Positions 4,200-38,103 of a DNA stretch of 64,000 bases are shown in pieces. This DNA comes from an uncultured Candidatus Binatia bacterium (GTDB lineage: Bacteria > Desulfobacterota > Binatia > UBA9968 > JAJDTQ01), in contig OZ244070.1 of the NCBI GenBank assembly GCA_965215605.1, positions 224,001 through 288,000 of the forward strand. The letters run 5' to 3'. The number at the start of each line of letters is the position of its first letter. Positions within the stretch are counted from its first letter, which is position 1. The position numbers and the translations under genes were made by a program. The notes beneath the pieces were generated by a model. It saw only the letters and a program-made list of their open reading frames with translations, was not told the origin of the DNA and searched no databases.

Positions 4200-4205
4200 A
4201 CAGCG

Positions 4206-4460: not shown

Positions 4461-4708
4461 TCGATGAGTTCTCTCGCCGTGCCCCCAACGGATTCGAGCT
4501 CGGCGATGGACTTCAGAAGACGCCGCGCGTTTCTCGGGCCGTGGAGAAGGTAGGCGGTTTCCTCCAACGCATGATAGTCCTCCAAGGACATCATCACCAC
4601 GGATCGGTTGTTATTTCGAGTGATGACCACCGGCGCATGGTCGTCGCAGACCTTCTCCATGGTCTTGGCGAGCCGTGCCCTGGCGTCAGAGTATGCGATC
4701 GTATCCAT
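4457..4708 (-). CDS. yefM: Phd/YefM antitoxin
   Basis: 83 aa, YSDARARLAKTMEKVCDDHAPVVITR...MSLEDYHALEETAYLL. Confidence 0.95.
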   Translation of the reverse strand: MDTIAYSDARARLAKTMEKVCDDHAPVVITRNNNRSVVMMSLEDYHALEETAYLLHGPRNARRLLKSIAELESVGGTARELIE

Positions 4709-4723
4709 GGCGCCCCTTCAGTA

Positions 4724-4745
4724 AATTGTACAGTAAATAGTACAA
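4724..4745 (-). promoter_or_regulatory. yefM-yoeB operator / -10 region
   Basis: Inverted repeat TTGTAC-N8-GTACAA (4726-4745) containing the TGTACA core known from YefM operators; minus strand reads TACAAT (-10-like) just upstream of the RBS. Confidence 0.7.
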
Positions 4746-4798
4746 CCATCACGTGCCGGTCGCAAGCAAGGGCGGCAGACCACCCGTGTGCCCCGGCA

Positions 4799-5356: not shown

Positions 5357-5405
5357 GGGTTTCCTTTCCTCGATTCGTGTGACGCCCTCTACCCCTCTGT
5401 CCCGG

Positions 5406-7253: not shown

Positions 7254-7377
7254 TGGATTCCCGGGCGTCCGATTCCCCTTGCCCGGTATTTCCGGGCCGT
7301 TGACCCCCGCCTCCCCGTTCTGTAACACTCGAACCATTGAACGGTCGCACAGAGGAAAGGGCCGCGAGGGGCATTCG

Positions 7378-8409
7378 ATGGATTTCGAATTTCATTACTA
7401 TATGACTTACCTGATCGCCGCCAGAGCGGGCTTCGATCCTGACAACGCCCGTTTGCTGGCCCATTCCTCGCAGTTCATCGACGACAACGACATGGTCTTC
7501 GAGATCGACAAGGGAAAGAGCTCCGCGTACGGCAACTACATCAGTCAGACCATGAACATCCTCAAGCCGAAGCGGGAGCTGTTTCGCATCTACCCGCTCT
7601 TCCACTTCATTCCCGGAGACCCCAAGGCCAGGACCGCGTGGCGCAAGGACGGCAAGATGCACTGGCTGTGCACGACACCCGACAGCCGGAACGCGAACGC
7701 CATCATGGACGATGCGCTCAGGTCGAGGAACGTCTATCGGATCGGGATCGCGGCCCACGGATACGCCGACACCTGGGCGCATCAGAACTTCACCGGCTAC
7801 TACGAGGATTTCAACGCCATGAACACGGGCCTCGGCCTCATCACCCCCAACATCGGACACGCGGACGCCGGGCACAACCCGGATTGGCCCGCCCTGCGCT
7901 GGCGCGATCCGCGGCTGTTGAGCGAGGCGGTGGACAACAAGGCGCGTTTCCTGGCCGCGGCGCGGCGCCTGTACGAAAAATTCGCCGGATTCGTCGACCC
8001 CAGGATATCCGACGCGGTTCTCAAGCGGACGCAGCGCGCGCTGTCACGCGATCTCGCGAAGGCCATCGGCGGGCGGGACCAAACGAACGGCCACTCTTCG
8101 ACACGCGTGTCGCGCTATCTGGAGTTGGCCAAACGCCCTGACTACGGCGGACGCGACTTGCCCGAGTACGACGAAGACCACTGGTTCGGCGAGGCGGTGA
8201 ACGAAGACGTGCGCGGCCTTCGCGACCGCAACGACAACGTTCTCTTGCGCTTCGACCCGTTGACGGACAGGTACACGTGGAAGTCCGGCCAACGTCACAA
8301 ACTCACCCACTGGTATCGGTTCCAGGAGGCCATCAAGACCCAGCAGGAGCATGCGTGGGCCATCTTGCGACGCTCCAATCTCAGGGGTCTCGCGTTGGGA
8401 AACTGGTGA
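7378..8409 (+). CDS. DUF6765-like protein (putative Zn-dependent phospholipase C/P1-nuclease-like fold)
   Basis: N-terminal MDFEFHYYMTY, SQFIDD, FHF, HGYADTWAHQNF, IGHAD His/Asp-rich motifs; ATG at 7378 after GAGGGG. Confidence 0.55.
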   Translation: MDFEFHYYMTYLIAARAGFDPDNARLLAHSSQFIDDNDMVFEIDKGKSSAYGNYISQTMNILKPKRELFRIYPLFHFIPGDPKARTAWRKDGKMHWLCTTPDSRNANAIMDDALRSRNVYRIGIAAHGYADTWAHQNFTGYYEDFNAMNTGLGLITPNIGHADAGHNPDWPALRWRDPRLLSEAVDNKARFLAAARRLYEKFAGFVDPRISDAVLKRTQRALSRDLAKAIGGRDQTNGHSSTRVSRYLELAKRPDYGGRDLPEYDEDHWFGEAVNEDVRGLRDRNDNVLLRFDPLTDRYTWKSGQRHKLTHWYRFQEAIKTQQEHAWAILRRSNLRGLALGNW

Positions 8410-10528
8410 ATCCTTTCCCCACGAAGATCCGCACGTTGCGGAACCCGTCGATCTCGGCCCGGTCCCGCGGGTTCACCACCACCGTGGTCACCGGGGTCTC
8501 GATGACCGCCGGGCCGGACAGTTCCATGCCCGGGCACATGCGCTGGAAGTCGTAGATGCGGGTGGGGGCGAACTCGCCCAGCTCCTCGAAGAACACGTTG
8601 CGGGGCGGTTTGAGGGCCTCGTCCGCGGGCGCCTTGCGCGCCGGCTCCTTCCTGACCCGGGGCTTCGCCAACAACCCCACCGCGGTGACCCGGAAGGTGA
8701 GAATCTCCTTGCCCGCCTCCCGGTAGCCGGAGCCCTTGCCGTAGGCCTTCTCGTAGGCGTCGTCGAACTCGGCGTAGAGCCGCTCCAGGTCGACCTCCGC
8801 CAGGGACGAGGTTCCCGCAGGCAGCGGTACGTTCAGTTCGTGCACTTGATAACGGTAGCGCATGTCGGCGCTGCGCGTGATCGCCATTTCGGAAGGGCCG
8901 AAACCGGCGGCGCCCAGGTCCGCCCGCGCCCTGCGGATCAGCTCGTCGAAGTTCGCGTTGACGCGGCCGGGATCGGCCGGCACCTGGAGGTGATCGGACT
9001 TGCCGTACTCGTGGACGACGTCGGAGCTGATGAGGCCCGTGGCGCCGTGCACCGAGGCCGTGGGCGGGATCACCACCTGCCGGACGCCGAGGTCGGCGGC
9101 GTAGCGGCTGGCGTGCACCGGCCCGGCACCGCCGAAGGCGAACAGCACGAACGAGCGCGGATCGTGCCCCTTCTCCACCGTCGCGCGGCGGATCAGATCG
9201 CTCATGTGCGCGTTGGAGATGCGGTAGATGCCGCGGGCCGCCTCGGACGCGCTCATGCCCAGGGGCTGCGCGATCCGCCTTGTCACCGCCCCAAGCGCGG
9301 CGTCGCGGTCCAGCCGCATGCGCCCGCCGAGGAAGTAGTCGGGGTTGAGGTAGCCGAGGACGAGATCCGCGTCGGAGACCGTGGGCTCGGCACCGCCGAG
9401 GCCGTAGCACACCGGCCCCGGACGGGCGCCAGCGCCCTCGGGCCCCACCTTGAGAAGGCCGGTCTCTTCCTCGATCCAGGCGACGCTGCCGCCGCCGGCG
9501 CCCACGGACTCGACCCAGATCTTGGGGGCCAGCACCCGGTGGCGGAGCACCACCGGCGTGTAGTCGCGCTCGATCCGCCCTTCCCGTACCACGCCCACCT
9601 TGAACGTGGTGCCGCCCATGTCGGTGGCCAGGATGTCGTGCTCGCCGATCAGCTCGCCCAGGAAACGGGTCCCCACCACCCCCGACACGGGTCCGGATTC
9701 GATGGTGCCCACGGCGTTGCGGCAGGTGGCCTCGATGTCGAGCACGCCGCCGTAGGCCTGCATGATCATCGGCGGCTTGGCCAGCCCCTTGCCCCGCAGC
9801 ACCTGATGGAGATTGACGAGGTAAGCGGAGATGCGCGGGCCGATGTAGGCGTTGAACACCGTGGTGGCGGTGCGCTCGTACTCGCCGACGAACGGCGCCG
9901 TGGCACTCGAAAGGGTGACGTAGACGCCTGGATGACGGCGCCGCAGGATGCCGGCCACCGCCTTCTCGTGGGCGTCGTTGGCCACGGACCAGAGCAGGCA
10001 CACGGCGACGGACTCGACGCCGCGCGCCACCAAGTCGTCCAGGGCGGCGGCGGCCTGCTCCTCGTCCAGGGGCACGGTAACGGCGCCCTTGTAGTCCACG
10101 CGTTCGTTCACCTCGGCCACCAGGGAGCGGGGAACGAAGGGCTCGGGCTTGCGCAGCCAAGCCAGCCGGCCGGCCTCGGCCTCGGTAAGCCCGTCGGTCA
10201 CCTTGCCGCGCATCATGAGCAGCGTATCCGGAAAGCCCCGGGTCGTCACCAGGCCGGTCCTCGGACCGGAGCGGGTGATCAGGGTGTTCTCGCCGATGGT
10301 GCAGGCGTGGAAGAAAAGCGTGGTTTGCCGGAGGAGATCCTCCTCGTCGCCAAGGCCGATATTGCGGGCCGCGTCCCGCACCGCGTCGGCAGCGCCGACG
10401 GAATAGTCCGGCGGCGTGGAAAGCGACTTGCCCACCACCATCTCGCCTTGGTCGTTGACCACGACGCAGTCGGTAAAGGTGCCGCCGATGTCCACGCCGA
10501 CCACGTATCGACCTCGGTAATCACTCAT
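8381..10528 (-). CDS. hydantoinase A/oxoprolinase family protein
   Basis: VGVDIGGTFTD, EYERTATT, ESGPVSG, DMGGTT, GPEGAGARPGPVCY, FGGAG. Confidence 0.92.
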   Translation of the reverse strand: MSDYRGRYVVGVDIGGTFTDCVVVNDQGEMVVGKSLSTPPDYSVGAADAVRDAARNIGLGDEEDLLRQTTLFFHACTIGENTLITRSGPRTGLVTTRGFPDTLLMMRGKVTDGLTEAEAGRLAWLRKPEPFVPRSLVAEVNERVDYKGAVTVPLDEEQAAAALDDLVARGVESVAVCLLWSVANDAHEKAVAGILRRRHPGVYVTLSSATAPFVGEYERTATTVFNAYIGPRISAYLVNLHQVLRGKGLAKPPMIMQAYGGVLDIEATCRNAVGTIESGPVSGVVGTRFLGELIGEHDILATDMGGTTFKVGVVREGRIERDYTPVVLRHRVLAPKIWVESVGAGGGSVAWIEEETGLLKVGPEGAGARPGPVCYGLGGAEPTVSDADLVLGYLNPDYFLGGRMRLDRDAALGAVTRRIAQPLGMSASEAARGIYRISNAHMSDLIRRATVEKGHDPRSFVLFAFGGAGPVHASRYAADLGVRQVVIPPTASVHGATGLISSDVVHEYGKSDHLQVPADPGRVNANFDELIRRARADLGAAGFGPSEMAITRSADMRYRYQVHELNVPLPAGTSSLAEVDLERLYAEFDDAYEKAYGKGSGYREAGKEILTFRVTAVGLLAKPRVRKEPARKAPADEALKPPRNVFFEELGEFAPTRIYDFQRMCPGMELSGPAVIETPVTTVVVNPRDRAEIDGFRNVRIFVGKGFTSFPTRDP

Positions 10529-11505
10529 ATAGGGTTGATATAATTACGGTTTTTAAGGGATCTGACCTGCGGATCGCCAGGCATCTCCACGCCCCAGTCA
10601 AGCATCTTCTCGTAGCGCCAGGATGACGTTCTGCCATCCGGATACATCGTTGGAATTTCGGCCTGGTATCTTGATTTTCGGCCTGCCGGATCTTCTTCGG
10701 CAAAGACCGCGACCACGCGGGCTTCGACAGAACGCCGCCTTGGCGCATCCTCCCGTGTCGTCGGATCGTTGAAGGCGGTGTGAAAGGTGACCCGGGAGGC
10801 CAGATCCTCGATGCGGGAATCGTATTGCCTGAAGATCATCGCCTCATTCGGCTCCATCCGTGGAAAGTAATGCCAGTTCTGGGCCATGTCATGAACAAGG
10901 CGGTACAATACCAGGCGGGTGGCCGGCTCGGTCAGGCGCCATCCATCGGAACTGATCATGTCATCGGCCAAGATGGTCGAATGGTCGCACAACGCAAGGG
11001 GTTTTGACTCGATTGCCTGCAGGGGGTCCGTGCTGCGCCAGACAGTGTAGACGCCGAAGTGATGGCCATCAGGTATGTCGAGCACTTCCTCGACATAGGG
11101 AGTCAGATCCGCGTGGGGCGTCTCCGCATAGGTCCCGGCGCCGTTGGGCGAACTTGGCACGCCGGTGCGAAACTCGTGCTGCATGGTCCGTGCACGAAGG
11201 CATCCGGTTGCCGCCATGACCAACTCCGCGCACTGGTCGTAGAACCGGGAAACGACATCGTCATGATTGCCGTAATCGATATCGATCGGCGCATGCACAA
11301 GCTCGAATCCCATGCGCCCGATGGTGGCGGCCGGTTCGAGGGCGCGCGCATCGTGAACGCGGATCGGCTTGACAACGAGCACTTCCGAATGATCGGCCCC
11401 ATCACCGTGGCATGGCAGCCGGAACCCCCGGTATCTCGGATTCACGAAGGCACTTTCCGAAACAACAAACGACGTATCGGGAAACAATGGCAGAGTTCTC
11501 ATCAT
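10525..11505 (-). CDS. CmcJ/NvfI-family putative Fe(II)/2-oxoglutarate oxygenase (copy 1)
   Basis: VHDAR...GFELV, PHAD (H-x-D), VWRS, PLALCD, WHYFPRM..E, FRQYDS, TFHTAF.DP, RRSVEAR. Confidence 0.75.
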   Translation of the reverse strand: MMRTLPLFPDTSFVVSESAFVNPRYRGFRLPCHGDGADHSEVLVVKPIRVHDARALEPAATIGRMGFELVHAPIDIDYGNHDDVVSRFYDQCAELVMAATGCLRARTMQHEFRTGVPSSPNGAGTYAETPHADLTPYVEEVLDIPDGHHFGVYTVWRSTDPLQAIESKPLALCDHSTILADDMISSDGWRLTEPATRLVLYRLVHDMAQNWHYFPRMEPNEAMIFRQYDSRIEDLASRVTFHTAFNDPTTREDAPRRRSVEARVVAVFAEEDPAGRKSRYQAEIPTMYPDGRTSSWRYEKMLDWGVEMPGDPQVRSLKNRNYINPI

Positions 11506-13016
11506 GACGTCGGCAGGTCCTGGAATTCGGGCGGTTGTGCCTTGCAGTAATCGTCAATGAATTGCTGGTGGTCCGGAAACTGGTCCACCTGCTTGTCGAC
11601 ATTTTCGTGGATGTCAGCCAGGTATTGCCCGAACTCCTCGTCGCTCATCGCATTGGCGATCGGGTGATACTGTTCCGGAATCAGACCCTGGCCCAGCATG
11701 ACCTGCGCCCATGACGTGGTGCCGAACAGTTCCGCCTGGTTCCACGCTATCCGGCCCGTTTGACGAAACAGCTTGATCCGGTGTTCGAGGGAGTCGGGAA
11801 TCTTCATGGTCCGGCACTGCCGCCAGAACGGCGTATCCGAGCGGTTGGTCACATGGTAGTGCAGGATGATGAAATCCCGGATATTGTCGATTTCAAGCTG
11901 CATGTGGGAATTGAACTCTGCGATCCCGGCTTCGCGAATTCCGTTATCGGGGAACATCTGGACCAGGCGGGTGATGCCGCGCTGAATGAGGTGGATGCTG
12001 GTCGATTCGAGCGGTTCGATGAAACCGGATGCCAGTCCCACGGCAACGCAGTTCTTGTGCCAGCACCTGTGCCTCTGGCCGGCTCTGAAACGGATCAGCC
12101 GCGGCTCTGCAAGCACCCGGCCCTGCACATTGTCGAGCAGCCGTGCCCTTGCCTCGTCGTCGGACCAGTGCCGGGAGGAGAACACCATGCCGTTCCCGAC
12201 CCGGTGCTGCAGCGGAATGCGCCATTGCCACCCCGCTTCACGGGCTATCGAGCGGGTATATGGATGCGCGGCTCCGGACGATTCGGTTGGCACCGCGATT
12301 GCGCGGTCACAGGGCAACCAGTCGCCATAATCATCGAAGCCGACATCGAGGGTTTGGCCGATCAGGAGCCCGCGAAAGCCGGTGCAGTCGATGAACAGGT
12401 CGCCGGTGACGAGTTGCCCGGTTTGCAGGCGCAGACCGGTTATGAATCCACTGGCCGGATCCTGTTCCACCTGCTCAATTCGTCCTTCATGCCGGACAAC
12501 GCCAAGCTCCTCGGCAATACCTCGCAGGAATTGTCCGTACAGTCCGGCATCAATATGATAGGCGTAGTTCAGAACGTTGTGCAGGCTGATTGCAAACCGG
12601 TCGCGCAGCGCCGCCGCTGTTTCCGGACAATATTCGCCATAATCCCGGGCCAGGCCCAGCAAATGGCCCCTCAGCCAGTAATGCTGAAAGCCGGCGGTCC
12701 AGCGCTCCCTGCCGACCCACCCGAAGGAATGGAAGTAGTCTTCGCCCAGGTCCCGCCAGTTCTCGAACGAAATTCCAAGCTTGAAGGTACCCTGTACGGC
12801 CCGCAGGAAATCAGTCTCCCTGACATCCATGTATTCGTGAAAAAGTCGCAGCGGTGGAATCGTCGCTTCACCCACCCCGACAGTGCCGATATCGTCGGAT
12901 TCGACCAGGACAATGTCCAGGGTTTCGCCAAGTTGCCGGGCAAACATTGCCGCAGCCATCCATCCGGCAGTCCCACCTCCGGCGATCACGAGTTTCCTGA
13001 TTTTCCTATTGTGCAT
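11502..13016 (-). CDS. flavin-dependent halogenase, tryptophan halogenase family (copy 1)
   Basis: GGGTAG FAD motif, VGVGEATIP, GTFKLGI (catalytic Lys position), GWQWRIPL (WxWxIP), GFIEPLESTSI. Confidence 0.93.
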   Translation of the reverse strand: MHNRKIRKLVIAGGGTAGWMAAAMFARQLGETLDIVLVESDDIGTVGVGEATIPPLRLFHEYMDVRETDFLRAVQGTFKLGISFENWRDLGEDYFHSFGWVGRERWTAGFQHYWLRGHLLGLARDYGEYCPETAAALRDRFAISLHNVLNYAYHIDAGLYGQFLRGIAEELGVVRHEGRIEQVEQDPASGFITGLRLQTGQLVTGDLFIDCTGFRGLLIGQTLDVGFDDYGDWLPCDRAIAVPTESSGAAHPYTRSIAREAGWQWRIPLQHRVGNGMVFSSRHWSDDEARARLLDNVQGRVLAEPRLIRFRAGQRHRCWHKNCVAVGLASGFIEPLESTSIHLIQRGITRLVQMFPDNGIREAGIAEFNSHMQLEIDNIRDFIILHYHVTNRSDTPFWRQCRTMKIPDSLEHRIKLFRQTGRIAWNQAELFGTTSWAQVMLGQGLIPEQYHPIANAMSDEEFGQYLADIHENVDKQVDQFPDHQQFIDDYCKAQPPEFQDLPTS

Positions 13017-13409
13017 AACCTGCCTCTGGAGGGTCGACTTGGCGTATTCGCGCCATTGCCGGACTGGTACAGGGCGGTTCAGGGCGGTTCAGTGTGGGCA
13101 AAATCTGCAGTCTGACATACGAGGCATCGACCAGGCCCGGAAGTCGGGGACCGGGCATCATGGGAATGGCGACACTGGCGTGCACCCATGACCGGCAGCG
13201 TTGGAGGATGGAAGTCCCGCTGGAAGAGACGGCAGCTCACCCGAAGGGAATGGTGCAGACTCCAGACCGGTCTGCCTGTGCCTCGATCTGTGACGGTGAG
13301 TTCATGTCCGTTCGCCCTGTTCTCTGAACATTGGCACAACGGCATTGCTTGGCAGGAAGAATGGCTCCGGCAGAAAATCAGCAGATCACTGCCGGAGACC
13401 CGACAATGC

Positions 13410-13670
13410 TCACCAGGTGTGGATGTCACCAATCCCGCCGGCAACGCCGCTGATTTCCTCATCCGACAGGCTGCGGCCCGCCGGTGGCAGGACCAGGTGA
13501 TAGTCGGTGGCGTTGTCTTCAAGGACATGGATGTTGATGCCGTCCGGAACCGAAAGCCCGGTCGCGTCCTTGATGGCTGCCTTCGGGTCATTCAGGAGCC
13601 GGGCGCGGAATTCTCCGTCCTCGTCGGCCTTGGCAAGTACCTGCGCCTCGATCTGTGATTGTCTGCTCAT
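13410..13670 (-). CDS. NHLP-leader RiPP precursor 1 (86 aa; predicted core IGDIHTW)
   Basis: AAGGAG RBS; leader KADEDGEFRARLLNDPKAAI...HLVLP...LSDEEISGVAGG double-glycine site followed by a 7-aa core. Confidence 0.88.
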   Translation of the reverse strand: MSRQSQIEAQVLAKADEDGEFRARLLNDPKAAIKDATGLSVPDGINIHVLEDNATDYHLVLPPAGRSLSDEEISGVAGGIGDIHTW

Positions 13671-13742
13671 GTCTTTCTCCTTATTCTCTGAACATCGCCA
13701 TAGCGACATGACGTCCTGCCGTTTTCCACGGCCATTGAACCT

Positions 13743-13771
13743 CAACTACTTCAGGTCATTGTTCGAGTCAA
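13743..13771 (-). promoter_or_regulatory. putative sigma70 promoter for precursor 1
   Basis: TTGACT-N17-TAGTTG on the minus strand. Confidence 0.35.
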
Positions 13772-13858
13772 CCCGATTGTTGCAAACTCTGGCGTTCCGT
13801 AAGCGTAAGCGAAACGTAAGCAACTGGCAGCAGAACGGGGCCAGCCGCACACCGGCGG

Positions 13859-14776
13859 CTATCCCGCGTTCCAATCGAGCATCACTTCGTGACGCGACGC
13901 CGCCGGGGTGCCGTCGAGATGGACTGTCGGAACCTCGGCCTGGAATCTGGCCCTTCTGACTTCGCGCTCCGTGTCGTCCTCGCGGAAGACCGCGACGACG
14001 CGCGCCTCCACTGATCGACGCAACGGCGCGTCCTCCCGGGTCGTCGGATCCTTGAAGGCGGAATGAAAGGTCATCCTGCGATTCGGCTCCTCCCGGCGCG
14101 AATCATACTGCACGAAGATCAGCGCCTCGTCCGGCGTCATGCGCGGAAAGTAGTACCAGCACTGACCGAGATTGTGGACAAGGCGGTAGTCCACCAACAG
14201 CGTTGGCGGTTCGGTCCGTCGCATACTGTCGGCGCAGACCATGTCGGTGCGGGATACGGTGGCGCCGTCGCAAAGGGCCAGCGGCATGAACTCTATTTCC
14301 CGTTCCGGATCGATACTGCGCCAGACGTTGAACAGGCCGAAATGCCGCCCTTCCGGGATATCCACGACGTCCTCGATGTAGGGGGTCACGTCGCCGTGGG
14401 CCGGCAGTCCATAGGCGCCGTTGGGGGTTCCATCCCTGAACTCATGTTGCATGACCTCCGCGGCCAGGCATCCGGTCGCCGCTCTGACAAGGTTCAAACA
14501 ATATTCGTAGAAGCGCGTCTTGACGAGCTCCCTGTTGGAGAAATCGATGCGAATGGGAGCTTCCACCAACTGGAAGCCCTGGTCATCGAGACTCGGAGCC
14601 TGCTCGAGCGCGCGGGCGTCATGGACCCGGATCGGCTTGCGGAGAAACATCTGCCGCCTCTCATCCAGATCGAGGGTTTGCTCGTACCCCAGGCGCTTGC
14701 CGCGATACTTTGGGTTCGCGAAGATCGTGTCCGAGATTACCGAGGGCGCGTCTGCCAAGGCCGGGATTCGTCTCAT
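13859..14776 (-). CDS. CmcJ/NvfI-family putative Fe(II)/2-oxoglutarate oxygenase (copy 2)
   Basis: Clear paralogue of 10525..11505: PAHGD, NVWRS, PLALCD, WYYFPRM, QYDS, TFHSAF.DP, RRSVEAR. Confidence 0.75.
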   Translation of the reverse strand: MRRIPALADAPSVISDTIFANPKYRGKRLGYEQTLDLDERRQMFLRKPIRVHDARALEQAPSLDDQGFQLVEAPIRIDFSNRELVKTRFYEYCLNLVRAATGCLAAEVMQHEFRDGTPNGAYGLPAHGDVTPYIEDVVDIPEGRHFGLFNVWRSIDPEREIEFMPLALCDGATVSRTDMVCADSMRRTEPPTLLVDYRLVHNLGQCWYYFPRMTPDEALIFVQYDSRREEPNRRMTFHSAFKDPTTREDAPLRRSVEARVVAVFREDDTEREVRRARFQAEVPTVHLDGTPAASRHEVMLDWNAG

Positions 14777-14797
14777 GCTTCCATCTCCGGGTTGATC

Positions 14798-17713
14798 TCA
14801 AGCCATTTGCCGCGATGCAAGGTCACGGAACGGACCGTCCGCGTTGAACAGCTCGTCGAAACGGCCGACCTGCACCACGCGGCCGCCCTTCAGCACGTAG
14901 ATCCGATCCGCCTTGCGGATGGTGGACAGCCGGTGGGCAATGACGAAACGAGTGCCGGTGGATTCCTCGACGGCCTTCATCGTCTGCGCCTGGCTCTTGG
15001 TGTCGAGCCAGCTCGTGGGCTCGTCGAGGAAGACGATGCGCGGGTTCCGCACCAGCGCGGCGGCGAGGCCGATGCGCTGACCCTGACCACCCGAGAACGT
15101 CGCCGCGTTCTCGCCTACCGTGGTGTAGAGCCCCATCGGCATGTTGCGGATGTCCTGGTCGACGGCCGCCAGGCGGGCGGCGCGCCACGCATCGACCGTG
15201 GTCAGATCGTTGCCGATGCCGATGATGTTGGTGAGAATGGTGCCGGCCTGGAGCGAGCCGTTCTGCATGACCACGCCGATCTGCCGCCGCACGGCGCCGA
15301 CGTCCAGTTGGGCCAGGTCCTGACCGTCGTAGTACACCGCGCCCGACGACGGCTTCTCCAGCCCCAGCGCAAGCCGGAACACCGTGCTCTTGCCGGCGCC
15401 CGATTCGCCCACCACCGCGACGAACTCGCCGGGCTTCGCGTGAATCGAGACCTCTTGCAGTATCCTGGGGCTGCCCTCGGAATAACTGAAGCTCACCTTG
15501 TCGAGGACGACTTCCCCTTCGAGTGTCGGCCGGATGCCGCGTCGGGCTCCGGCGTCCACCGGGCTCGCGAGTATCGGAAGCACCTGCTCGCATGCCGGCT
15601 TGATGAATGCCACGGCCCTGGCCGAATTGCCCAGCATCACGATGGACAGGCAAAAGACCATGGCCGCGATGTGGACGGCCACGAAGCCCGCCGCCGGGAG
15701 TCCACCGGCGCCTTGCGACGCCACCACCGAGAACAGGACGGCGCTGGCCAGCGCGGGCACTCCGGCGCTGAAGGCGGTGAGGCGTTCGCCGAGGACGGCT
15801 ATCCGGATCTCCGCCTGCTTGTGTTCCCGGTAGCGCTTCGCCCAGGCGGCGAAAGCCGAGTCTTCCGCGCCGGTGGCGCGCAGCTTGGCGATGCCGTTCA
15901 GGAACTGGTGCATGTCGCCGGCGAGTTGGCGCGCCGTTTCGAGGTGGCGCCGCTGCGGTTCGACATTGAGGATGCAAAAGACGGCCGTGGCGCCGAGCAC
16001 GACCATGCCCAGAAACACCATGGCCCAGCCCAGCGCCGCGCTGTGGTAGAACAGCAGCCCGAAGGCAGGCAACACGAACAACGTCGACAACACCGCGTCG
16101 GCCGTGACTCCGGCGACATTGTCCCTGATTTCCTGGAAGACCATGGACCGCGCCACCAGCTCGCCCGCGGTGAAGCGGCGAAAGAAGGCCGATGGCAGGC
16201 GCAGCAGACGGTCCCATACGGTCGAGACGAGCCGCGCGGCCAGACGCCCCTCCAGACGCATGAGCGCAGTGCCGCGGAGGACGTGCGCCGCCGCCGCCAC
16301 GAAGGCCAGCCCCACCAGAACGGCCGAGAACTGAATCAGCGCGGCCGCGTCGCCCGCGGGGATCACCCGGTCGACCAGCAGGTCGACGGCCACGGCCGGC
16401 GCGAGACTCAGCAAACCGGCGCCGAGGCCCGCGGCCACGAGCCGGCCGGTCTCGGTGGCGGCCTTTGTGCCGCCGACACGGAACAACTCGCGCAGTCCGG
16501 CGGCGCCCTCGGCGTGGAGCCTGGGATACAGCAGGCGAGCGTCGCGAATCTCGTGGGTCGTCTCGGCGCTGGCGGGTGTGGACTCACCGGTCACCGGATC
16601 CACCACGCGGTACCGGCCCGCCCGGCCGGGCAGCAGGACGACAGGACGGTCATCGTCGCGCCGAAAGGCCAGCAGCGCGCCGCTGTCCCCCAGGTACCAA
16701 CGGTCTTCCACCAACAGCCGGACTCGGCGCTCACGCACTCCCGACGCCTCGCAGTAATCGCGGAGCGACGGTTCCGCCCCGGCGCCGACGGCCGGCGTAC
16801 TGAATCGGATGCCTTCGTGCCGGCCGATGATCCGCAATGCGTTCCCGAGGGCCGTACCGTCCAACGCCGTCTCGTCACCGGCGTCAGACAGGCTCGACAG
16901 GTTCCGCCTGGCCAAGGCCTTGTCGTGGCGGCGCTGCGAAGCCTGCGCCACCTGCAGATTGGCGTCGTCGACCCGCAGCAGCCGCCGGTGCATGGACTCG
17001 GCGCCGAGAACCAACCGATGAAACTCCGGCAAGGCTGAGGTCAGCAGCGTGGCGATGTCGATCTCGCCGGTGGACACCCCGGTAATGTCCGTGGCCGAAT
17101 GCAGCCTGAGCCAGGTATCCCGGGTCAGGGGCATCATGCCGGGACCGTCCCTCCCCCCGGTGTCCGCCAGATCGAGGAAGGTAGCCTGGAGGTCGTCGGC
17201 CACAACCCAGACCACGCCGCGCTCGGCCGACACGATGCCGCTGCCCGCCGCACCTCCGGGAAGGAGCCGATGCTCGGTTCGGGGATGCTCCTCCATTTCG
17301 CGAACCACGGCGCCGCCCAGGTCCTCGATCCAGGCATCGACCTGCGCGCGCAGCGCGCACGAGAGCCGGTCGGCGTCGTCGCTCCGCTGCGCCGCGTCCA
17401 GCAACCGGTGGAGGGACAAGCAACGCAAGGAGGACCCTTGCAGTCCCTTCGCGATCAGTTTCAGGGAATGAGCGGCCGCGCCGGCGCCGAACGCCAGCCG
17501 GCCCTGCTCCAGGCGCACGACATGCCTGAAGGGCGACTGCATCTGGTCATCGGCGTACTCTGCCGCCAGGACGTCGATGGCTCCTCGTTCGACGAACCAG
17601 ACGACGCCGGCGTCCTGCAGGTGGATCGGGCGGCTTGCGGCGGCTTCCCGTGGCTCGCCGAACGCCGCGGCGAACTCGGCCAGCACGTCCCTCGGTTGTT
17701 CGTCATTCGCCAC
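14798..17713 (-). CDS. NHLP bacteriocin-system ABC transporter permease/ATPase (no active peptidase)
   Basis: N-terminal cNMP-binding-like segment (VWFVERGAIDV), TM domain, GESGAGKST, FSGGQ, FLDEPTS; start uncertain (GTG 17713 or ATG 17758). Confidence 0.85.
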   Translation of the reverse strand: MANDEQPRDVLAEFAAAFGEPREAAASRPIHLQDAGVVWFVERGAIDVLAAEYADDQMQSPFRHVVRLEQGRLAFGAGAAAHSLKLIAKGLQGSSLRCLSLHRLLDAAQRSDDADRLSCALRAQVDAWIEDLGGAVVREMEEHPRTEHRLLPGGAAGSGIVSAERGVVWVVADDLQATFLDLADTGGRDGPGMMPLTRDTWLRLHSATDITGVSTGEIDIATLLTSALPEFHRLVLGAESMHRRLLRVDDANLQVAQASQRRHDKALARRNLSSLSDAGDETALDGTALGNALRIIGRHEGIRFSTPAVGAGAEPSLRDYCEASGVRERRVRLLVEDRWYLGDSGALLAFRRDDDRPVVLLPGRAGRYRVVDPVTGESTPASAETTHEIRDARLLYPRLHAEGAAGLRELFRVGGTKAATETGRLVAAGLGAGLLSLAPAVAVDLLVDRVIPAGDAAALIQFSAVLVGLAFVAAAAHVLRGTALMRLEGRLAARLVSTVWDRLLRLPSAFFRRFTAGELVARSMVFQEIRDNVAGVTADAVLSTLFVLPAFGLLFYHSAALGWAMVFLGMVVLGATAVFCILNVEPQRRHLETARQLAGDMHQFLNGIAKLRATGAEDSAFAAWAKRYREHKQAEIRIAVLGERLTAFSAGVPALASAVLFSVVASQGAGGLPAAGFVAVHIAAMVFCLSIVMLGNSARAVAFIKPACEQVLPILASPVDAGARRGIRPTLEGEVVLDKVSFSYSEGSPRILQEVSIHAKPGEFVAVVGESGAGKSTVFRLALGLEKPSSGAVYYDGQDLAQLDVGAVRRQIGVVMQNGSLQAGTILTNIIGIGNDLTTVDAWRAARLAAVDQDIRNMPMGLYTTVGENAATFSGGQGQRIGLAAALVRNPRIVFLDEPTSWLDTKSQAQTMKAVEESTGTRFVIAHRLSTIRKADRIYVLKGGRVVQVGRFDELFNADGPFRDLASRQMA

Positions 17714-19922
17714 GAAGCAGCCCGTGGTAGAAGGTGCCGGCGGCGTGGAGCTCGTCATGCGTTCCCTGCTCCACGATGCGGCCCTTGTCGACGACGATGA
17801 TCCGGTCGGCGTCGCGGATGGTGCTCAGCCGATGCGCGATGATCAGACAGGAGCATCCGCGACGCCGGATTCGATCGTCGATGAGCAACTCGGTTACGGG
17901 GTCGAGGGCGCTGGTGGCTTCATCGAGGATCAGCAGCGACGGGTTGTTGACCAGCGCCCGGGCGATTTCCAGGCGCATGCGCTGTCCGCCGCTGAAGTTG
18001 CGTCCTCCCTCTTCCACCATGGACTCGTAGCCCGCCGGGCGGCCGATGATGTCCTCATGAACCGCGGCGTCGCGGGCCGCGGCGGTCACATGGTGATCCG
18101 GTATCGTCGCGGTCCACATGGTGAGGTTGTTGCGTATGGTCGTGGCGAACAGGACCGCATGCTGATCGACCATGGAGACGGACCGGCAGAATACCTCCCG
18201 CGGGATATCGACTTGCGGGTGGCCGTCGAAGAGCACTTCCCCGGACCAGGGCCGATGCAGACCCGCCGCCAGAAGCGCCAACGTGGACTTGCCCGAACCG
18301 CTGGGCCCCACCACCGCAACGCGCTGGCCGGGCTCGATGGTCAGGTTGAAGTCCTCGACGAGCGGCGCACGGTTCCGCTGGAAACCGAACGTGACGCCCC
18401 GCATCTCCAATCGTCCGACCAGACGCAGCCGGCCGTCGAGCGTCATGACCCGCTGTTGCGCGTCGGCGGCATGGTCGGGATAGGACATCTCCTGCGGCGC
18501 ATTGACCACGTCGTCCATCCTTGCCATATCGGCCTCCAGCGTCTCCAGCAGATCGGAGAACTGGGAAACCCGGGCCACGGGACCCAGAAAATTACCGGCG
18601 AGAACGTAGAATCCCATCAACCCGCCAAGGGTCATCTCGCCCGACATCGTGCGCCAGCCGCCAAGGCCGAACACCGCCGCCGCCGCGAGTATCTGAAACA
18701 GTTGCGGCAGCGCCGCGGCCACATGACCGAGTTCCACGAACGCCTGCCGCGCGCTCAGCTCGCGAGCCTGTCTGCCACTCCACAGCGAGAAGAAATCGGC
18801 CTCGCGGGCGGTTGCCTGCAAGGTCTCGATCATCTTGACGCCCGCCGTGCCCACCCCGAACGATATGCCCTGCTCGCGCCGTAGTCGATGGTTCTTGTCC
18901 CGGCGGAGGCGGGTCAGCACCTGTATCGACGCGACGCTGGCAACTCCCAAACCCCCAACCACAAGCGCCAGCCAGACATCGTATGCCACCATGACAACCA
19001 GAAAGGTCGCGCTCATGATGAGATCTACGGACAGCCGCACCATCTGGCCGGCTCCGGTGTCGGCGATCTGGTCGATGGTCCGCATGCGCAACGCCAGGTC
19101 TCCGGCGAGCCGGTGGGCGAAGAACCGCATGGGAAGCCGAAGCAAACGATCCAGGAAGTAGTCTGATTGGCTTATGGCAAGCCGGACGATGAGTTCGCGC
19201 AGGGAACGCATCTGGAGCCAGGTCAACAGGCAGATCAGCACGCTGGCGGCGAACATCGCCGCGATCAGCGCCCTGCTCTGACCCATCTGCTGGTCCTGAA
19301 AAACGCGATCCACGAATTCCGCAAGCAATACCGGCGGCGCCAGCAAGGTCAAGGCAAGGAGCAGGCCGTAGACGGCGGTGCGGGTCAGGAGGGAGCGATG
19401 GCCTCGCAACCACGGCCACAGGCGGCGCGCGACACCCGGACGCGCCCCGCCGGGCCGAAACGTGGGGCCCGGCTCGAGAATCAGGCCGACGCCCGTAAAC
19501 TCCTGACCGAAGTCACGCGCGTCGACGACGCGATGACCTTCGGCGGGATCATTCAGATAGTAGCGCCCGCGCGCGATGCCCTCCAGGACCACGAAGTGCC
19601 TGAATCCCCAATACAGGACCATCGGCTTCGGCAGCTTGGCGAGGCCATGGACCTGGCTGCTCCAGCCGGTGGCCTTCAGGCCGTATTTCCTGGCGGCGAT
19701 GGCGATGTCTTCGAGCGTCGAACCGTCACGCCCGACTCCGCAGTCGTCACGCAGAACTTCCAGGGGCACCCTGCGCCCGAAATGGGCGAGCACGGCGCCA
19801 AGGCATGCCGCGCCGCAGTCGGCCGCCTCCAACTGCATGAACAACGGTGTGCGGCGCGGTCTCCGCCAGCGCCCGAGCGTCCCGGGAGCAGCGGAGAATT
19901 TTGATTCGGCAGGATCAGCCAT
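17703..19922 (-). CDS. NHLP-family peptidase C39-containing ABC exporter
   Basis: QLEAADCGAACL (catalytic Cys), HFVV (His), NDPA (Asp), TM domain, GPSGSGKST, FSGGQ, ILDEATS. Confidence 0.92.
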   Translation of the reverse strand: MADPAESKFSAAPGTLGRWRRPRRTPLFMQLEAADCGAACLGAVLAHFGRRVPLEVLRDDCGVGRDGSTLEDIAIAARKYGLKATGWSSQVHGLAKLPKPMVLYWGFRHFVVLEGIARGRYYLNDPAEGHRVVDARDFGQEFTGVGLILEPGPTFRPGGARPGVARRLWPWLRGHRSLLTRTAVYGLLLALTLLAPPVLLAEFVDRVFQDQQMGQSRALIAAMFAASVLICLLTWLQMRSLRELIVRLAISQSDYFLDRLLRLPMRFFAHRLAGDLALRMRTIDQIADTGAGQMVRLSVDLIMSATFLVVMVAYDVWLALVVGGLGVASVASIQVLTRLRRDKNHRLRREQGISFGVGTAGVKMIETLQATAREADFFSLWSGRQARELSARQAFVELGHVAAALPQLFQILAAAAVFGLGGWRTMSGEMTLGGLMGFYVLAGNFLGPVARVSQFSDLLETLEADMARMDDVVNAPQEMSYPDHAADAQQRVMTLDGRLRLVGRLEMRGVTFGFQRNRAPLVEDFNLTIEPGQRVAVVGPSGSGKSTLALLAAGLHRPWSGEVLFDGHPQVDIPREVFCRSVSMVDQHAVLFATTIRNNLTMWTATIPDHHVTAAARDAAVHEDIIGRPAGYESMVEEGGRNFSGGQRMRLEIARALVNNPSLLILDEATSALDPVTELLIDDRIRRRGCSCLIIAHRLSTIRDADRIIVVDKGRIVEQGTHDELHAAGTFYHGLLRGE

Positions 19923-20110
19923 GCGGGGCTTACGGCCACAACGTAACTGCGGCCCAGGCTACGAGCATCAGCAACGGGACCAGAAGCGCCGCCACGAAAA
20001 CGCGCTCATGCGGTGCCGTCACGCGCAACAGGTCGTCCACTGCCTCGGGTTGCACGCTGCGGATGAGCGCTTCCTGGCGGTAAACGGAGGGGGCCGGCAT
20101 CAGGCAAGGA

Positions 20111-20144
20111 AGGGGTGAGCGGCGCGTCTACCCGCGCCGCCCCT
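20111..20144. other. GC-rich stem-loop 3' of precursor 2
   Basis: agggg..gcggcgcg-tctacc-cgcgccgc-ccct inverted repeat with no U-tract; may stabilise or attenuate mRNA. Confidence 0.4.
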
Positions 20145-20164
20145 CATTGAACCGGTCTAAGCGA

Positions 20165-20425
20165 TTACCAAAGAGCGCTCCAGGAACCACCGGCGGCCGC
20201 GCGCATTTCTTCGTCCGAGAGAGCACCCCCGGCCGGCGGCAGGACCAGATGAACGTCCGTGGCGCTCTCTTCGTGAACGTGGACGGTCAGGTCCTCCGGC
20301 ATGGCCAACCCCGTGGCTTGCTCAATGGCCTTCCTCGGATCTTCCAGGAGCAGGGCACGGAATGCTTCGTCCTCGTCCGCCTTCGCTCGCACGAGAACCT
20401 CGACCTCTGGTGAAGAATTTGCCAT
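20165..20425 (-). CDS. NHLP-leader RiPP precursor 2 (86 aa; predicted core SWSALW)
   Basis: AAGGAGG RBS; leader KADEDEAFRALLLEDPRKAI...HLVLPP...LSDEEMRAAAGG followed by a 6-aa core. Confidence 0.88.
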   Translation of the reverse strand: MANSSPEVEVLVRAKADEDEAFRALLLEDPRKAIEQATGLAMPEDLTVHVHEESATDVHLVLPPAGGALSDEEMRAAAGGSWSALW

Positions 20426-20540
20426 TGAATCCTCCTTTACGTTCGCCGTTAGGGGTGAATTTCCAGGCCTCGGCTTCGCCCGCGGCCGCTCCAGGAGGGC
20501 CGCCGAACCGGCGCTGAAGGCCCACATCAGCACAAATCCA

Positions 20541-20569
20541 CTGATACACGCACCGCTTGCGAGAGTCAA
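20541..20569 (-). promoter_or_regulatory. putative sigma70 promoter for precursor 2 / transporter operon
   Basis: TTGACT-N17-TATCAG on the minus strand. Confidence 0.4.
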
Positions 20570-20669
20570 GGCAGCCTGCGACCGACGGTGCGCCCATGGT
20601 GGCAACGGCAACGGTGAGCGGCTATAGGAAAAGGGGACCGAACTGCTTCACCCCTGAGGGTTTCGTGCA

Positions 20670-21944
20670 ATGGTACAGCCGGGCGCCGAGTCTTTACGGA
20701 AAATCGCCGTTGTGGGGCGAGGAACCGCCGGGTCCATGGCGACCGCCAGCATCACACATGCCCTCCGGGACACGGACCACGAGCTGCACCACATCTACGA
20801 CTCGCGCATTCCGGTCATCGGCGTGGGTGAAGGCAGTTGGCCAAGCCTTGTTCGTGAGTTGCAGCGACTGACGCATCTTCCCCTTGACGCGATTCAAATG
20901 CGCGTGAAGGGAACCCGCAAGTACGGCGTGGCATTCGAGGGCTGGGGCCGGCGCAACCAAAACTTCATCCATTACTTCATGCCGCGCCATGAGTCCTACG
21001 GCTACCATCTGTCTGCCGACTTGATGGCGGACCTCCTGCGGGAACACACGAGAGCGCGCCACATCGACGCCAAAGTGCTTGACATCACCAGGGTGGAGGA
21101 CGGCGCCCGGGTGGAATTCGAGAATCTGGCGCCGGAACGCTACGATCTGGTCTTCGATGCCCGCGGTTTTCCGAGAGAACTTCATCCCGACCAGCACATC
21201 CACATCCCCTTCATCCCCACCAATACGGCCGTCATCCGGCGCTGTCCGGCGATCTTCGAGGAAGCGCAGGACGGGCCGGTTCTGCAACACACCTTTACCC
21301 GCGCCGTCGCGCGTCCCCACGGCTGGATATTCGTGATTCCGCTTACCACGCACACGTCCTGCGGGTACATCTTCAACCGCGACGTATCGAGCCCCGCCGC
21401 GGTCGAGTCCGACTTCGACGCGTTCCTCAAGACGGAAGGAATATCCGAATTCGAGCAACGCGCCGTCATTCCGTTCCCGAATTTCGTCCATCGCGCCATG
21501 TATGACGGCGCAATAGCACGCATCGGCAATGCGGCGACGTTCATGGAACCCCTTGAAGCGACGGCGATCGGGGGCGCCGGGGCCCAGATCGGACTGGTGC
21601 TTCACGCGCGCCTCAGCCGTCCGGTGGAAAAACTCGAAGAGGACGCACCGGTGGTCAACCGGTTTCTCGTCAAAAACATGCTCTCCTTCGGCCTGTTCGT
21701 CGGTTGGCACTATGCCCGCGGCTCGAACTACGACAGCGGTTTCTGGCGCCATGCTCGTGATCACGCCTGGCCGCGGCACCGCAGGGCGTTGGACACCGAG
21801 CCGGCGGGTTCCCCCGCGCTCCGGAGTTTCGACGAGATGATCGAAGCGACGGCCCGCACCGTCATCGATGCAGCGGACTGGAAACGGGAATGCGGGTTCC
21901 CGTTCAGCAGCTATTACCAGATGTCTCAGGGCCTCGGCTGTTGA
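20670..21944 (+). CDS. divergent flavin-dependent halogenase-like protein (copy 2, 424 aa)
   Basis: GRGTAG, IGVGEGS, GTRKYGV (Lys kept), GWIFVIP (WxWxIP variant), FMEPLEATAI. Confidence 0.8.
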   Translation: MVQPGAESLRKIAVVGRGTAGSMATASITHALRDTDHELHHIYDSRIPVIGVGEGSWPSLVRELQRLTHLPLDAIQMRVKGTRKYGVAFEGWGRRNQNFIHYFMPRHESYGYHLSADLMADLLREHTRARHIDAKVLDITRVEDGARVEFENLAPERYDLVFDARGFPRELHPDQHIHIPFIPTNTAVIRRCPAIFEEAQDGPVLQHTFTRAVARPHGWIFVIPLTTHTSCGYIFNRDVSSPAAVESDFDAFLKTEGISEFEQRAVIPFPNFVHRAMYDGAIARIGNAATFMEPLEATAIGGAGAQIGLVLHARLSRPVEKLEEDAPVVNRFLVKNMLSFGLFVGWHYARGSNYDSGFWRHARDHAWPRHRRALDTEPAGSPALRSFDEMIEATARTVIDAADWKRECGFPFSSYYQMSQGLGC

Positions 21945-21970
21945 CAACGTTCCCGCAATTTCACTAAGGT
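21941..21970 (+). promoter_or_regulatory. sigma70-type promoter upstream of dctP
   Basis: TTGACA-N18-TAAGGT. Confidence 0.55.
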
Positions 21971-22038
21971 CTGCACCTATCCGGCTTCGGCCGAGGCATC
22001 AACCGGTCGGGAAAGCCCCGGCAAAGGAGGGTATACGG

Positions 22039-23025: not shown

Positions 23026-23046
23026 GGGCCGCACGGTCCAAACAGC

Positions 23047-23093
23047 AAAAAACGCCCCCGATCCGCAGTGCCGGATCGGGGGCGTTTTCTTTT
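23047..23093. terminator. bidirectional Rho-independent terminator
   Basis: aaaaaacgcccccgatccg-cagtgc-cggatcgggggcgttttctttt between convergent genes. Confidence 0.9.
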
Positions 23094-23142
23094 CGGGTGC
23101 GCGGGACGTCCCGCGCGAGGACGCCCGCCGTTGTCCCTCTTC

Positions 23143-38035: not shown

Positions 38036-38103
38036 CCACAAGGCGACCTATCCAGGAAGCCGCATCAACCGTCCAGACAGAATTCACGAAGCACCCCGTG
38101 CAA

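Follow-up and report, generated by a model that had tools for sequence, protein, structure and literature searches.

This work describes a gene cluster for peptides made on the ribosome and modified after translation (RiPPs), lying at positions 10525-21944 of a 64,000-nucleotide stretch of DNA, hereafter referred to as the window (C1:224001-288000), from the genome of an uncultured Candidatus Binatia bacterium. Judged by its sequence, the cluster is real, intact, recurrent among genomes and under purifying selection, and we consider it likely that it is a functional sibling of the srp clusters found in the microbiomes of sponges, exporting tailored peptides of 6-7 residues. The products would most likely be small exported peptides ending in Trp, this residue being probably brominated, and then oxidized by a type of enzyme new to peptides, namely an oxygenase of the CmcJ/NvfI type dependent on Fe(II) and 2-oxoglutarate (2OG). 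The cluster would thereby add CmcJ/NvfI-type Fe/2OG oxygenases as a new tailoring-enzyme family in ribosomal peptide biosynthesis, and it defines a recurrent cluster family, comprising 66 oxygenase protein clusters and 22 examined loci.

Gene content and precursor peptides

Genes were called from the list of open reading frames (ORFs) in combination with hidden Markov model (HMM) scans against Pfam and NCBIfam. The block comprises nine genes, and all nine ORFs are intact:

oxyA, 10525-11505 (-): 326 aa, oxygenase; NF041278 (CmcJ/NvfI), 151.8 bits (cut-off 80)
halA, 11502-13016 (-): 504 aa, flavin-dependent halogenase; PF04820, 628.4 bits
preA, 13410-13670 (-): 86 aa, precursor with a nitrile hydratase leader peptide (NHLP) type leader; TIGR03793, 74.6 bits (cut-off 50.9)
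oxyB, 13859-14776 (-): 305 aa, oxygenase; NF041278, 168.6 bits (cut-off 80)
ABC2, 14798-17758 (-): 986 aa, ABC partner, permease/ATPase subunit of the NHLP exporter type; TIGR03797, 665.1 bits (cut-off 709.4)
ABC1, 17703-19922 (-): 739 aa, C39-peptidase ABC exporter; Peptidase_C39, 101.7 bits; TIGR03796, 849.7 bits (cut-off 853.3)
orf56, 19930-20100 (-): 56 aa, conserved membrane ORF with no Pfam or NCBIfam match
preB, 20165-20425 (-): 86 aa, NHLP-leader precursor; TIGR03793, 64.3 bits (cut-off 50.9)
halB, 20670-21944 (+): 424 aa, flavin-dependent halogenase, divergent from preB; PF04820, 142.4 bits in two stretches
cassette A (preA-halA-oxyA), 10586-13852 (strand not applicable): insertion relative to the related locus L015 (blastn)

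A sequence-only reading of this DNA had listed two precursors, a C39 ABC exporter with its partner, two halogenases and two oxygenases; the HMM scans agree with it on all of these elements and on their coordinates, and the only gene that it had overlooked is orf56. Its claim that the cluster has no backbone-modifying enzyme was likewise borne out: no YcaO, radical SAM, P450 or LanC gene is present in the window, and the leftover intergenic gaps of 393, 188 and 244 bp are too small for a further enzyme. In whole-genome family searches, the sole YcaO gene of the genome was located at C1:495 kb, outside the window, and the nearest radical SAM and P450 genes at 1,168 kb and 1,144 kb, respectively; the corresponding LanC search gave no match, and the LanC control gave a signal nowhere either.

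Both precursors exceed the TIGR03793 cut-off for NHLP leaders. In preA, a leader ending in ...LSDEEISGVAGG precedes the core IGDIHTW, with the predicted site between VAGG and IGDIHTW, and in preB a leader ending in ...LSDEEMRAAAGG precedes the core SWSALW, with the predicted site between AAGG and SWSALW. These GG-type sites, the C39-peptidase ABC exporter encoded nearby and the length of the cores fit the exported product of 6-7 residues that the sequence-only reading had proposed. Neither core contains Cys. In the leader alignment, the LxxxxL position is occupied by L-S-D-E-E-[MIL], which reads L-S-D-E-E-M in preB. The core IGDIHTW recurs in L039, its variant IGDINTW is carried by L038, L051 and, within the same genome, contig C6, and SWSALW is identical in L015.

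Across the family, 19 complete precursors yielded 13 distinct cores: IGDIHTW, IGDINTW, SISDIDTW, SWSALW, FSGQAW, FAPTDDSY, FAPGGDSW, YYSDSW, YAPSNGNW, YLPANGNY, a GSDMGGW-type core, FGQGW and NCDGIGHYGWDC. All except the last are 5-8 aa long. A C-terminal Trp or Tyr is present in 12 of the 13 cores and in 18 of the 19 precursors (16 W, 2 Y and 1 C), and beyond this aromatic residue no core feature is conserved. Since nearly all cores end in this way, and since both accessory enzymes of the family (halogenase and prenyltransferase-fold protein, see below) are of indole-directed types, the C-terminal aromatic residue is the presumed site of decoration.

The oxygenase subfamily and its recurrence with NHLP genes

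The two oxygenases of the window are paralogs sharing 56% identity, and the orthologs of oxyA in L038, L039 and L051 are 90-94% identical to it. When oxyB was compared with NvfI (7de2; E 1.4e-13), the HxD motif, the second His and R-x-S were aligned; furthermore, in an alignment of 63 subfamily sequences, H127-x-D129, H238 and R253 are invariant and match the corresponding NvfI residues. The subfamily is accordingly predicted from its alignment to possess the Fe(II) facial triad HxD...H and the 2OG-binding Arg. A role of the oxygenase as an Fe/2OG halogenase was rejected, the triad being HxD and not HxA/G. The AlphaFold2 model of oxyB (predicted local distance difference test, pLDDT, 92.6) retrieved NvfI and CTB9 as best Foldseek matches, with TM-scores of 0.67-0.81; the comparison with NvfI (E 1.7e-20, TM-scores 0.70/0.76) indicates an NvfI-like double-stranded beta-helix fold. 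According to the titles of the solved structures, NvfI is an endoperoxidase and the structure of CTB9 was determined with pre-cercosporin bound.

In a collection of 5.8 billion proteins, the subfamily forms a discrete set of 66 protein clusters, scoring 211-687 bits at 47-97% identity, and the first match beyond it falls to 112 bits and 33% identity. Source labels on these clusters include metagenome-assembled genomes (MAGs) assigned to Nitrospira, Poribacteria, Gammaproteobacteria, Rhodospirillaceae and Rhodobacteraceae. The distribution is patchy: a sample of 400 other genomes of the window's phylum gave no member, nor did the order of G402 or that of G403 (200 other genomes each), whereas 9 of 200 other genomes in the order of G404 carried one. 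The genome studied here additionally encodes three canonical CmcJ/NvfI genes (C1:324471-325262, 3119114-3119902 and 3337172-3337942), which score 295-308 bits against NF041278 and lie away from NHLP genes.

The surroundings of 22 subfamily oxygenase genes were examined as far as flanking sequence was available, namely both genes of the window and those of C6, L015, L038 (G401), L016, L017, L019-L021, L039 and L051-L061. An NHLP precursor accompanies the oxygenase gene in 19 of the 22 loci, an NHLP-type ABC1/ABC2 pair in 18, a gene for a protein with the ABBA-prenyltransferase fold in 11 and a halogenase gene in 9, counts that overstate the independence of the observations, as many loci are related and several are mutual orthologs, which weighs against our interpretation. 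The three loci without a precursor are L019, a contig of 1.6 kb, L020, whose contig begins inside ABC2, and L059, whose oxygenase copy has an internal TAG and is 17 kb away from another cluster. The usual gene order is precursor, orf56, ABC1, ABC2, oxygenase. The constant set thus consists of the precursor, orf56, the two ABC genes and the oxygenase gene, and the halogenases are accessory. Conversely, none of five loci with distant CmcJ homologs (at most 35% identity; L018 and L022-L025, three of them short) contained an NHLP gene or an NHLP-type ABC gene. The sequence-only reading would have fallen had halogenases and oxygenases of these types never co-occurred with NHLP genes elsewhere, and the loci above speak for it; of the elements in its proposal of a new RiPP class, the CmcJ/NvfI-type enzyme belongs to the constant set, and the halogenases drop out as class-defining elements.

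The ABBA-fold protein, whose gene is absent from the window, has approximately 350-390 aa and no Pfam or NCBIfam match (e.g., L016:11001-12074(-), L017:6314-7474(-) and 9 more among L052-L061). Its model (pLDDT 81.7) best matches the bacterial Trp/indole prenyltransferases 6-DMATS (6zrx), PriB (5inj), TleC and IptA, with probability 1.0 and TM-scores of about 0.5. Found in half of the oxygenase clusters and also in srp-type clusters, it may, by its modeled fold, be an enzyme that prenylates Trp or Tyr of NHLP peptides under the guidance of the leader. In L021, the most distant of the related clusters, a JmjC-domain protein of 504 aa, that is, a second Fe/2OG-type oxygenase, is encoded at 8355-9869(-) between the halogenase gene and ABC2, and a second precursor copy ends before its core.

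With regard to the substrate of the oxygenases, it is highly improbable that they leave the peptide alone and have a small molecule or some other protein as their target, being placed near NHLP exporters for reasons such as co-regulation or immunity. This possibility draws on the fact that the characterized or solved members of the CmcJ/NvfI fold all act on small molecules (CmcJ reportedly so), and that the three canonical CmcJ-family genes of the genome (about 300 bits) are away from NHLP genes. Against it, the subfamily is discrete and found within NHLP clusters of unrelated genomes with differing flanks, the 3.3-kb mobile cassette described below contains a precursor, a halogenase and an oxygenase gene only, and where a cluster has neither a halogenase nor a prenyltransferase-like gene, no further enzyme of a small-molecule pathway was found.

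As for the reaction, CmcJ is said to be a hydroxylase working with the methyltransferase CmcI, and in at least 5 loci a SAM methyltransferase is encoded directly beside the oxygenase. Because of the HxD triad, of this hydroxylase/methyltransferase pairing and of the methyltransferase genes beside the oxygenase in several clusters, hydroxylation is favored, and by analogy the oxygenase would most likely hydroxylate the core, probably on, or next to, its C-terminal aromatic residue. Less simple chemistry on the peptide, either decarboxylation/desaturation of the C-terminal Trp/Tyr to an enamide, or an aromatic cross-link or endoperoxide-type product, seems to us unlikely, though it has its arguments: a free C-terminal aromatic residue is the sole conserved core feature, the solved relatives perform unusual chemistry (the endoperoxidase NvfI, and CTB9 with pre-cercosporin), and many cores of prenyltransferase-type clusters start with Phe or Tyr (FAPGGDSW, YYSDSW, FSGQAW), which makes a head-to-tail aromatic link conceivable. 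However, the neighboring methyltransferases better fit a hydroxyl group to be methylated, and the cores differ in how their aromatic residues are spaced.

Halogenases, exporter and proposed pathway

Among solved structures, halA best matches Xcc4156 (6y1w; 631.4 bits), followed by 9luq and BrvH (6frl; 487 bits), and scores only about 300 bits against RebH, PrnA and Thal. Its translation shows GxGxxG, WxWxIP, Lys and EPLES motifs, which we take to be the flavin-halogenase motifs, with the catalytic Lys and Glu. With 424 aa, halB is approximately 100 aa shorter than the PrnA/RebH/Thal type and reaches at most 78 bits against any solved halogenase; GxGxxG is present, and the Lys and Glu at the PrnA catalytic positions are kept. 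On these scores, and for halB also on its shortness, an identity of halA or halB as a PrnA/RebH/Thal-type free-Trp halogenase was rejected.

A search with halB returned 1081 homologs at E<=1e-20; among the best 120 of these, nearly all of 423-424 aa, one is that of the cluster itself (100%) and 119 are 73-80% identical. Paralogs of halB in G401 (76% identical) and G462 (64% identical) are located about 10-12 kb from NHLP precursors ending in ...ITEEQLEAISAG-LCCCW, with an NHLP-type ABC pair and an HlyD-like gene in between; the LCCCW precursor is adjoined by a prenyltransferase-like gene, and in G401 a YcaO gene is also present. All four loci examined for halB-type genes had them within NHLP clusters. 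In turn, halA-type genes adjoin precursors with a sole Trp at the C-terminus in 7 loci (the window, C6, L038, L039, L051, L052 and, more distantly, L021).

The srp system offers the closest functional parallel. In the accessible parts of the published reports, the core of SrpE is LCCCW and its leader motif ITEEQL/LTEEQL (PMC10858898; bioRxiv 10.1101/2023.06.09.544420), and SrpI is a leader-dependent enzyme acting on cores of 5-7 aa, which brominates only the C-terminal Trp, at indole-6; according to these same parts, it does not chlorinate, makes no use of free Trp and brominates free indole at C3 (PMC10286304, PMC12615548). SrpI binds the LxxxxL leader motif, as far as those texts describe it (PMC10286304, PMC12615548, PMC10858898). 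By gene context, the halB family would be the srp halogenase family. By analogy, halB is probably an SrpI-type, leader-dependent brominase of the C-terminal Trp of preB, acting like SrpI at indole C6; preB, with its core SWSALW and its L-S-D-E-E-M leader, fits the SrpI substrate profile. Likewise, halA probably acts on the sole Trp of preA. Since halA and halB are only about 24-25% identical (tblastn local alignment), two halogenase lineages seem to have been enlisted for one and the same residue.

It is extremely unlikely that these halogenases act on free indole, Trp or another small aromatic compound and not on the precursors. Such a role would agree with the Trp_halogenase Pfam domain of both proteins and with the free indole bromination of Xcc4156 and BrvH in vitro (PMC7336383, PMC5945002). 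In the available portions of the literature, however, Xcc4156 and BrvH brominate indole or its derivatives and not free Trp, their native substrates being given as unknown (PMC7336383, PMC5945002, PMC7754283), and BrvH turns over indole poorly, so that its authors doubt that indole is the natural substrate; they liken its open site to that of MibH and think larger substrates likely (PMC5945002, in the part accessible). SrpI shows the same in vitro behavior, with C3 bromination of free indole and no use of free Trp, yet it is reported, in the text available, as a peptide brominase (PMC10286304). The location of halA-type genes beside precursors with a single C-terminal Trp, and of halB-type genes in NHLP clusters, also stands against a small-molecule substrate. 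A peptidyl role for halA gives the orphan BrvH/Xcc4156 clade a concrete native-substrate hypothesis.

With respect to export, the C39 domain of ABC1 is the presumed GG-site leader protease. The product of orf56 is 41% identical over 44 aa (residues 12-55) to an HlyD-like protein of 302 aa from the second NHLP cluster of the genome, and by this similarity it would be a homolog of the N-terminus and transmembrane helix of the HlyD protein of NHLP systems. Counterparts with 49-95% identity occur at the same position in L015-L017, L039, L051-L058, L060 and L061, and the ratio of nonsynonymous to synonymous substitution rates (dN/dS) of orf56 against L015 is 0.27; conserved in at least 15 loci, orf56 was rejected as a chance ORF. 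Because it is kept at the same position in this many loci, the short form of HlyD would be the normal state. By sequence similarity, ABC1, ABC2 and orf56 appear to form a variant of the NHLP export system (TIGR03796/TIGR03797/HlyD TIGR03794) and may work like it. We regard it as highly improbable that the cluster is silent or decaying, with a truncated HlyD, a non-functional exporter and nothing made. The cut of HlyD to 56 aa in a locus known from its genes, and the decay observed elsewhere in the family (the truncated second precursor in L021, and an oxygenase copy with an internal TAG in G462), would agree with it; against it, the nine ORFs of the window are intact, orf56 is conserved as described, and all compared enzymes show dN/dS values of 0.15-0.42.

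The data presented in this work show which genes are present, their motifs and synteny, the fold, the mobility of the cassette and the action of purifying selection; from these we infer a pathway in which every chemical step, the order of steps, the regiochemistry and the halide are conjectural. Both NHLP-leader precursors would be synthesized first, and tailoring would occur in the cytoplasm with the leader still attached. The halogenase would then brominate the C-terminal Trp, with the halide and the position taken from SrpI and BrvH/Xcc4156, and the oxygenase would subsequently oxidize the core, each precursor having its own enzyme (oxyB for preB, oxyA for preA). Finally, the C39 domain would cut after GG, and ABC1/ABC2 together with orf56 would export SWSALW and IGDIHTW, cassette A using the resident exporter. 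Small exported peptides with a decorated indole would resemble signaling peptides such as ComX. The system is also minimal, with a 3.3-kb cassette, cores of 6-7 aa and no backbone chemistry, and should be easy to reconstitute; it offers two candidate leader-guided Trp halogenases and a candidate peptide oxygenase as biocatalysts.

Several points weigh against this account, beyond the relatedness of the loci already mentioned. The pathway is known here from genes alone, and no flavin reductase gene is present in the cluster. The members of the oxygenase fold with solved structures are fungal enzymes of small molecules, not peptide-acting ones. In halB, the WxWxIP motif is partially degenerate, reading W-I-F-V-I-P, and the connection of halB with SrpI comes from gene context in two genomes. 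On the export side, TIGR03796 and TIGR03797 are the best matches of ABC1 and ABC2, yet both score just under the equivalog cut-offs, and the HlyD partner is reduced to the 56 aa of orf56, in place of the full-length HlyD of the NHLP export system. Lastly, the L021 core NCDGIGHYGWDC lacks a C-terminal aromatic residue.

A bolder view, to which we assign a decidedly low probability, is that undescribed, horizontally spreading 'Trp-tail' RiPPs form a family defined by the CmcJ/NvfI-subfamily enzyme, and that this enzyme performs a reaction on the free C-terminal aromatic residue that would be unprecedented in RiPPs, for example an oxidative decarboxylation/desaturation giving a C-terminal (bromo)dehydrotryptamine enamide. 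Dehydrotryptamine enamide ends are known from peptides of marine invertebrates, such as halocyamines and celenamides, for which no biosynthetic route is known. If that view were true, the 'indole brominases' of the BrvH/Xcc4156 clade would be peptidyl-Trp halogenases in nature.

Mobility of the locus and comparison with known systems

The genes stand together in one block, as the sequence-only reading had it, although this block is composite. In the blastn comparison with the close relative L015 (G401), DNA identity is 97% over 13852-23112 and 88-90% in the flanks, and L015 lacks the segment 10586-13852 containing preA, halA and oxyA. Sequence comparison therefore resolves the locus as a composite of a resident set (halB, preB, orf56, ABC1, ABC2 and oxyB) and a 3.3-kb mobile cassette (preA-halA-oxyA). 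A copy of the cassette with 94-97% DNA identity, encoding the core IGDINTW, is located on contig C6 of the same genome, and in G401 the cassette is found at a second site, about 72 kb from the cluster (L038). In G404 and G585, complete clusters include homologs of preA, halA and oxyA with about 87-96% protein identity, and the ABC genes of these clusters share only 57-69% identity with the ABC genes of the window; between the window and G404, synonymous divergence (dS) of halA and oxyA is 0.12-0.14, and the G+C content is 56% in the G404 stretch against 58-70% in the window. In our reading of these comparisons, the cassette would be a self-contained module of precursor, halogenase and oxygenase that was recently transferred horizontally and makes use of the resident exporter. 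Furthermore, the G+C content at third codon positions (GC3) is 0.68-0.86 in the cluster and about 0.9 in the host flanks (0.68 for oxyA against 0.91 in its flank), and because of this lower GC3 a foreign origin of the cluster is suggested.

Other observations touch on the same subject. The higher identity to L015 in the resident cluster than in its flanks suggests an exchange between the lineages later than their divergence. The 17-kb contig C6 (C6:1-17209, G+C 0.605) begins with the cassette, followed by a HigA-like antitoxin gene, a DNA methyltransferase gene, a Vsr-like gene and restriction-type ORFs, and it may represent a mobile element, part of a plasmid or a variant from another strain that entered the MAG (contamination 5.74%) in binning. 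In G404, fragments of an insertion-sequence-type transposase (zinc-ribbon N-terminus and transposase domain, in split frames) are located between halA and orf56 (L039:15827-16730(-)), which fits mobility of the halogenase module. Within the window, positions 38001-44000 constitute a second stretch of low G+C content (0.585-0.617 against 0.65-0.70 around it), which may be another acquired island. Eight sequencing runs from 2 studies were listed for this DNA, none of them an RNA run, a fact without bearing on expression. Among the assembled contigs of four of these runs, no piece spans the cassette junctions; many short contigs from other organisms match at 90-95%, the depth peak at 10.6-13.9 kb in run X4 is unreadable as copy number, and these data were too noisy and were not used.

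The cluster is flanked by hydantoinase/oxoprolinase genes and TRAP-transporter genes. Directly upstream of the cluster, two hydantoinase A/B (oxoprolinase-type) gene sets and an isochorismatase-family gene occupy 443-10528, together with the gene of a DUF6765 protein (7102-8409(+)), and the stop codon of oxyA and the start codon of a hydantoinase A gene overlap by 4 bp. In a promoter/terminator scan, 9 sites resembled terminators, where chance alone would give 7.8; the hairpin and T-run located 16 nt past preA (13394-13379) did not rise above chance and were not used.

Concerning previous descriptions, no report of a CmcJ/NvfI enzyme in any RiPP pathway was found in the full-text literature, whose coverage leaves out most subscription papers and supplements, a result in line with the sequence-only reading, to which no NHLP pathway with such oxygenases was known. 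A survey of sponge microbiomes lists, in its accessible part, 17 uncharacterized NHLP-rich RiPP families with oxidoreductases, group transferases and halogenases, four of them with a cupin-4 enzyme, and the cluster type of the window may already have been seen there, unnamed (PMC9426513). Among characterized halogenases, the best solved relatives of halA are BrvH and Xcc4156, described in the portions available as bromide-preferring, without use of free Trp and with unknown native substrates; in contrast to these, for which the same portions report no candidate, halA is encoded between a precursor and an oxygenase gene and thus has a concrete candidate substrate (PMC5945002, PMC7336383).

The oxygenases share with CmcJ, NvfI and CTB9 an NF041278 score above cut-off, the HxD...H and R-x-S residues and the same fold (TM-score about 0.7), but the oxyA/oxyB subfamily is only about 20-26% identical to them and has a specific, conserved N-terminal strand (residues about 1-40) and a C-terminal helix and tail (about 265-305) outside the family model. 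The context also differs, being that of a ribosomal peptide here and that of beta-lactam or fungal meroterpenoid/perylenequinone pathways there. Leader-dependent Trp prenylation in long-leader RiPPs is reportedly performed by MppC on a Nif11-leader lanthipeptide, and KgpF and ComQ/ComX are said to be further examples; the commoner form of our cluster family resembles these in having an ABBA-fold protein, of activity predicted by fold, beside Trp/Tyr-ended cores, whereas in the window the halogenases would fill that role. Polytheonamide-type proteusins reportedly employ the Fe/2OG hydroxylase PoyI, a radical-SAM epimerase and methyltransferases, and thus also combine an NHLP leader with an Fe/2OG oxygenase as peptide-tailoring enzyme; unlike the cluster described here, they have long cores with heavy radical-SAM modification of backbone and side chains, and their oxygenase belongs to a different family.

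The same genome contains an srp-like NHLP cluster (C1:481791-497614). Besides ABC1, ABC2 and the gene of the HlyD-like protein of 302 aa, it comprises a precursor whose core is LCCCGI, a fused YcaO (798 aa), two methyltransferase-like ORFs and a prenyltransferase-like ORF, which shares 27-28% identity with its counterparts in the oxygenase clusters; this cluster lacks both a halogenase and a Trp in the core. Beside the srp clusters of G462 and G401, ORFs were observed in which the NHLP leader continues into a long C-terminal region and not into a short core (L066:1-832(-) and L067:6128-6331(+), respectively), and one such fusion runs off its stretch at 277 aa.

The closest known system is that of the srp clusters with SrpI, from which the sequence-only reading had set this cluster apart. 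The absence of YcaO stands, and yet the two are not unrelated, as halB belongs by context to the halogenase family found beside LCCCW precursors, with the 76% and 64% identity to the G401 and G462 enzymes given above; preB ends in Trp as SrpI substrates do, SrpI itself having been compared by context alone. Common to both are the NHLP leader with an acidic LxxxxL-type motif, a very short core ending in Trp, and an exporter formed by a C39-ABC protein and ABC2, so that the cluster family shares leader, exporter and C-terminal Trp focus with the widespread srp clusters. As to differences, neither the LCCCW core nor YcaO was found in the window cluster; since both are missing, the cluster is, by sequence, better regarded as a sibling of srp than as a member, and since it has no YcaO and no Cys in its cores, no azolines would be formed. 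In addition, only 56 aa remain of the HlyD protein, halA represents a second halogenase type unrelated to the first, and the position of the constant enzyme is filled by a CmcJ/NvfI-type oxygenase. Compared with srp, the YcaO chemistry would appear, from gene content, to be swapped for oxidation together with halogenation or prenylation.

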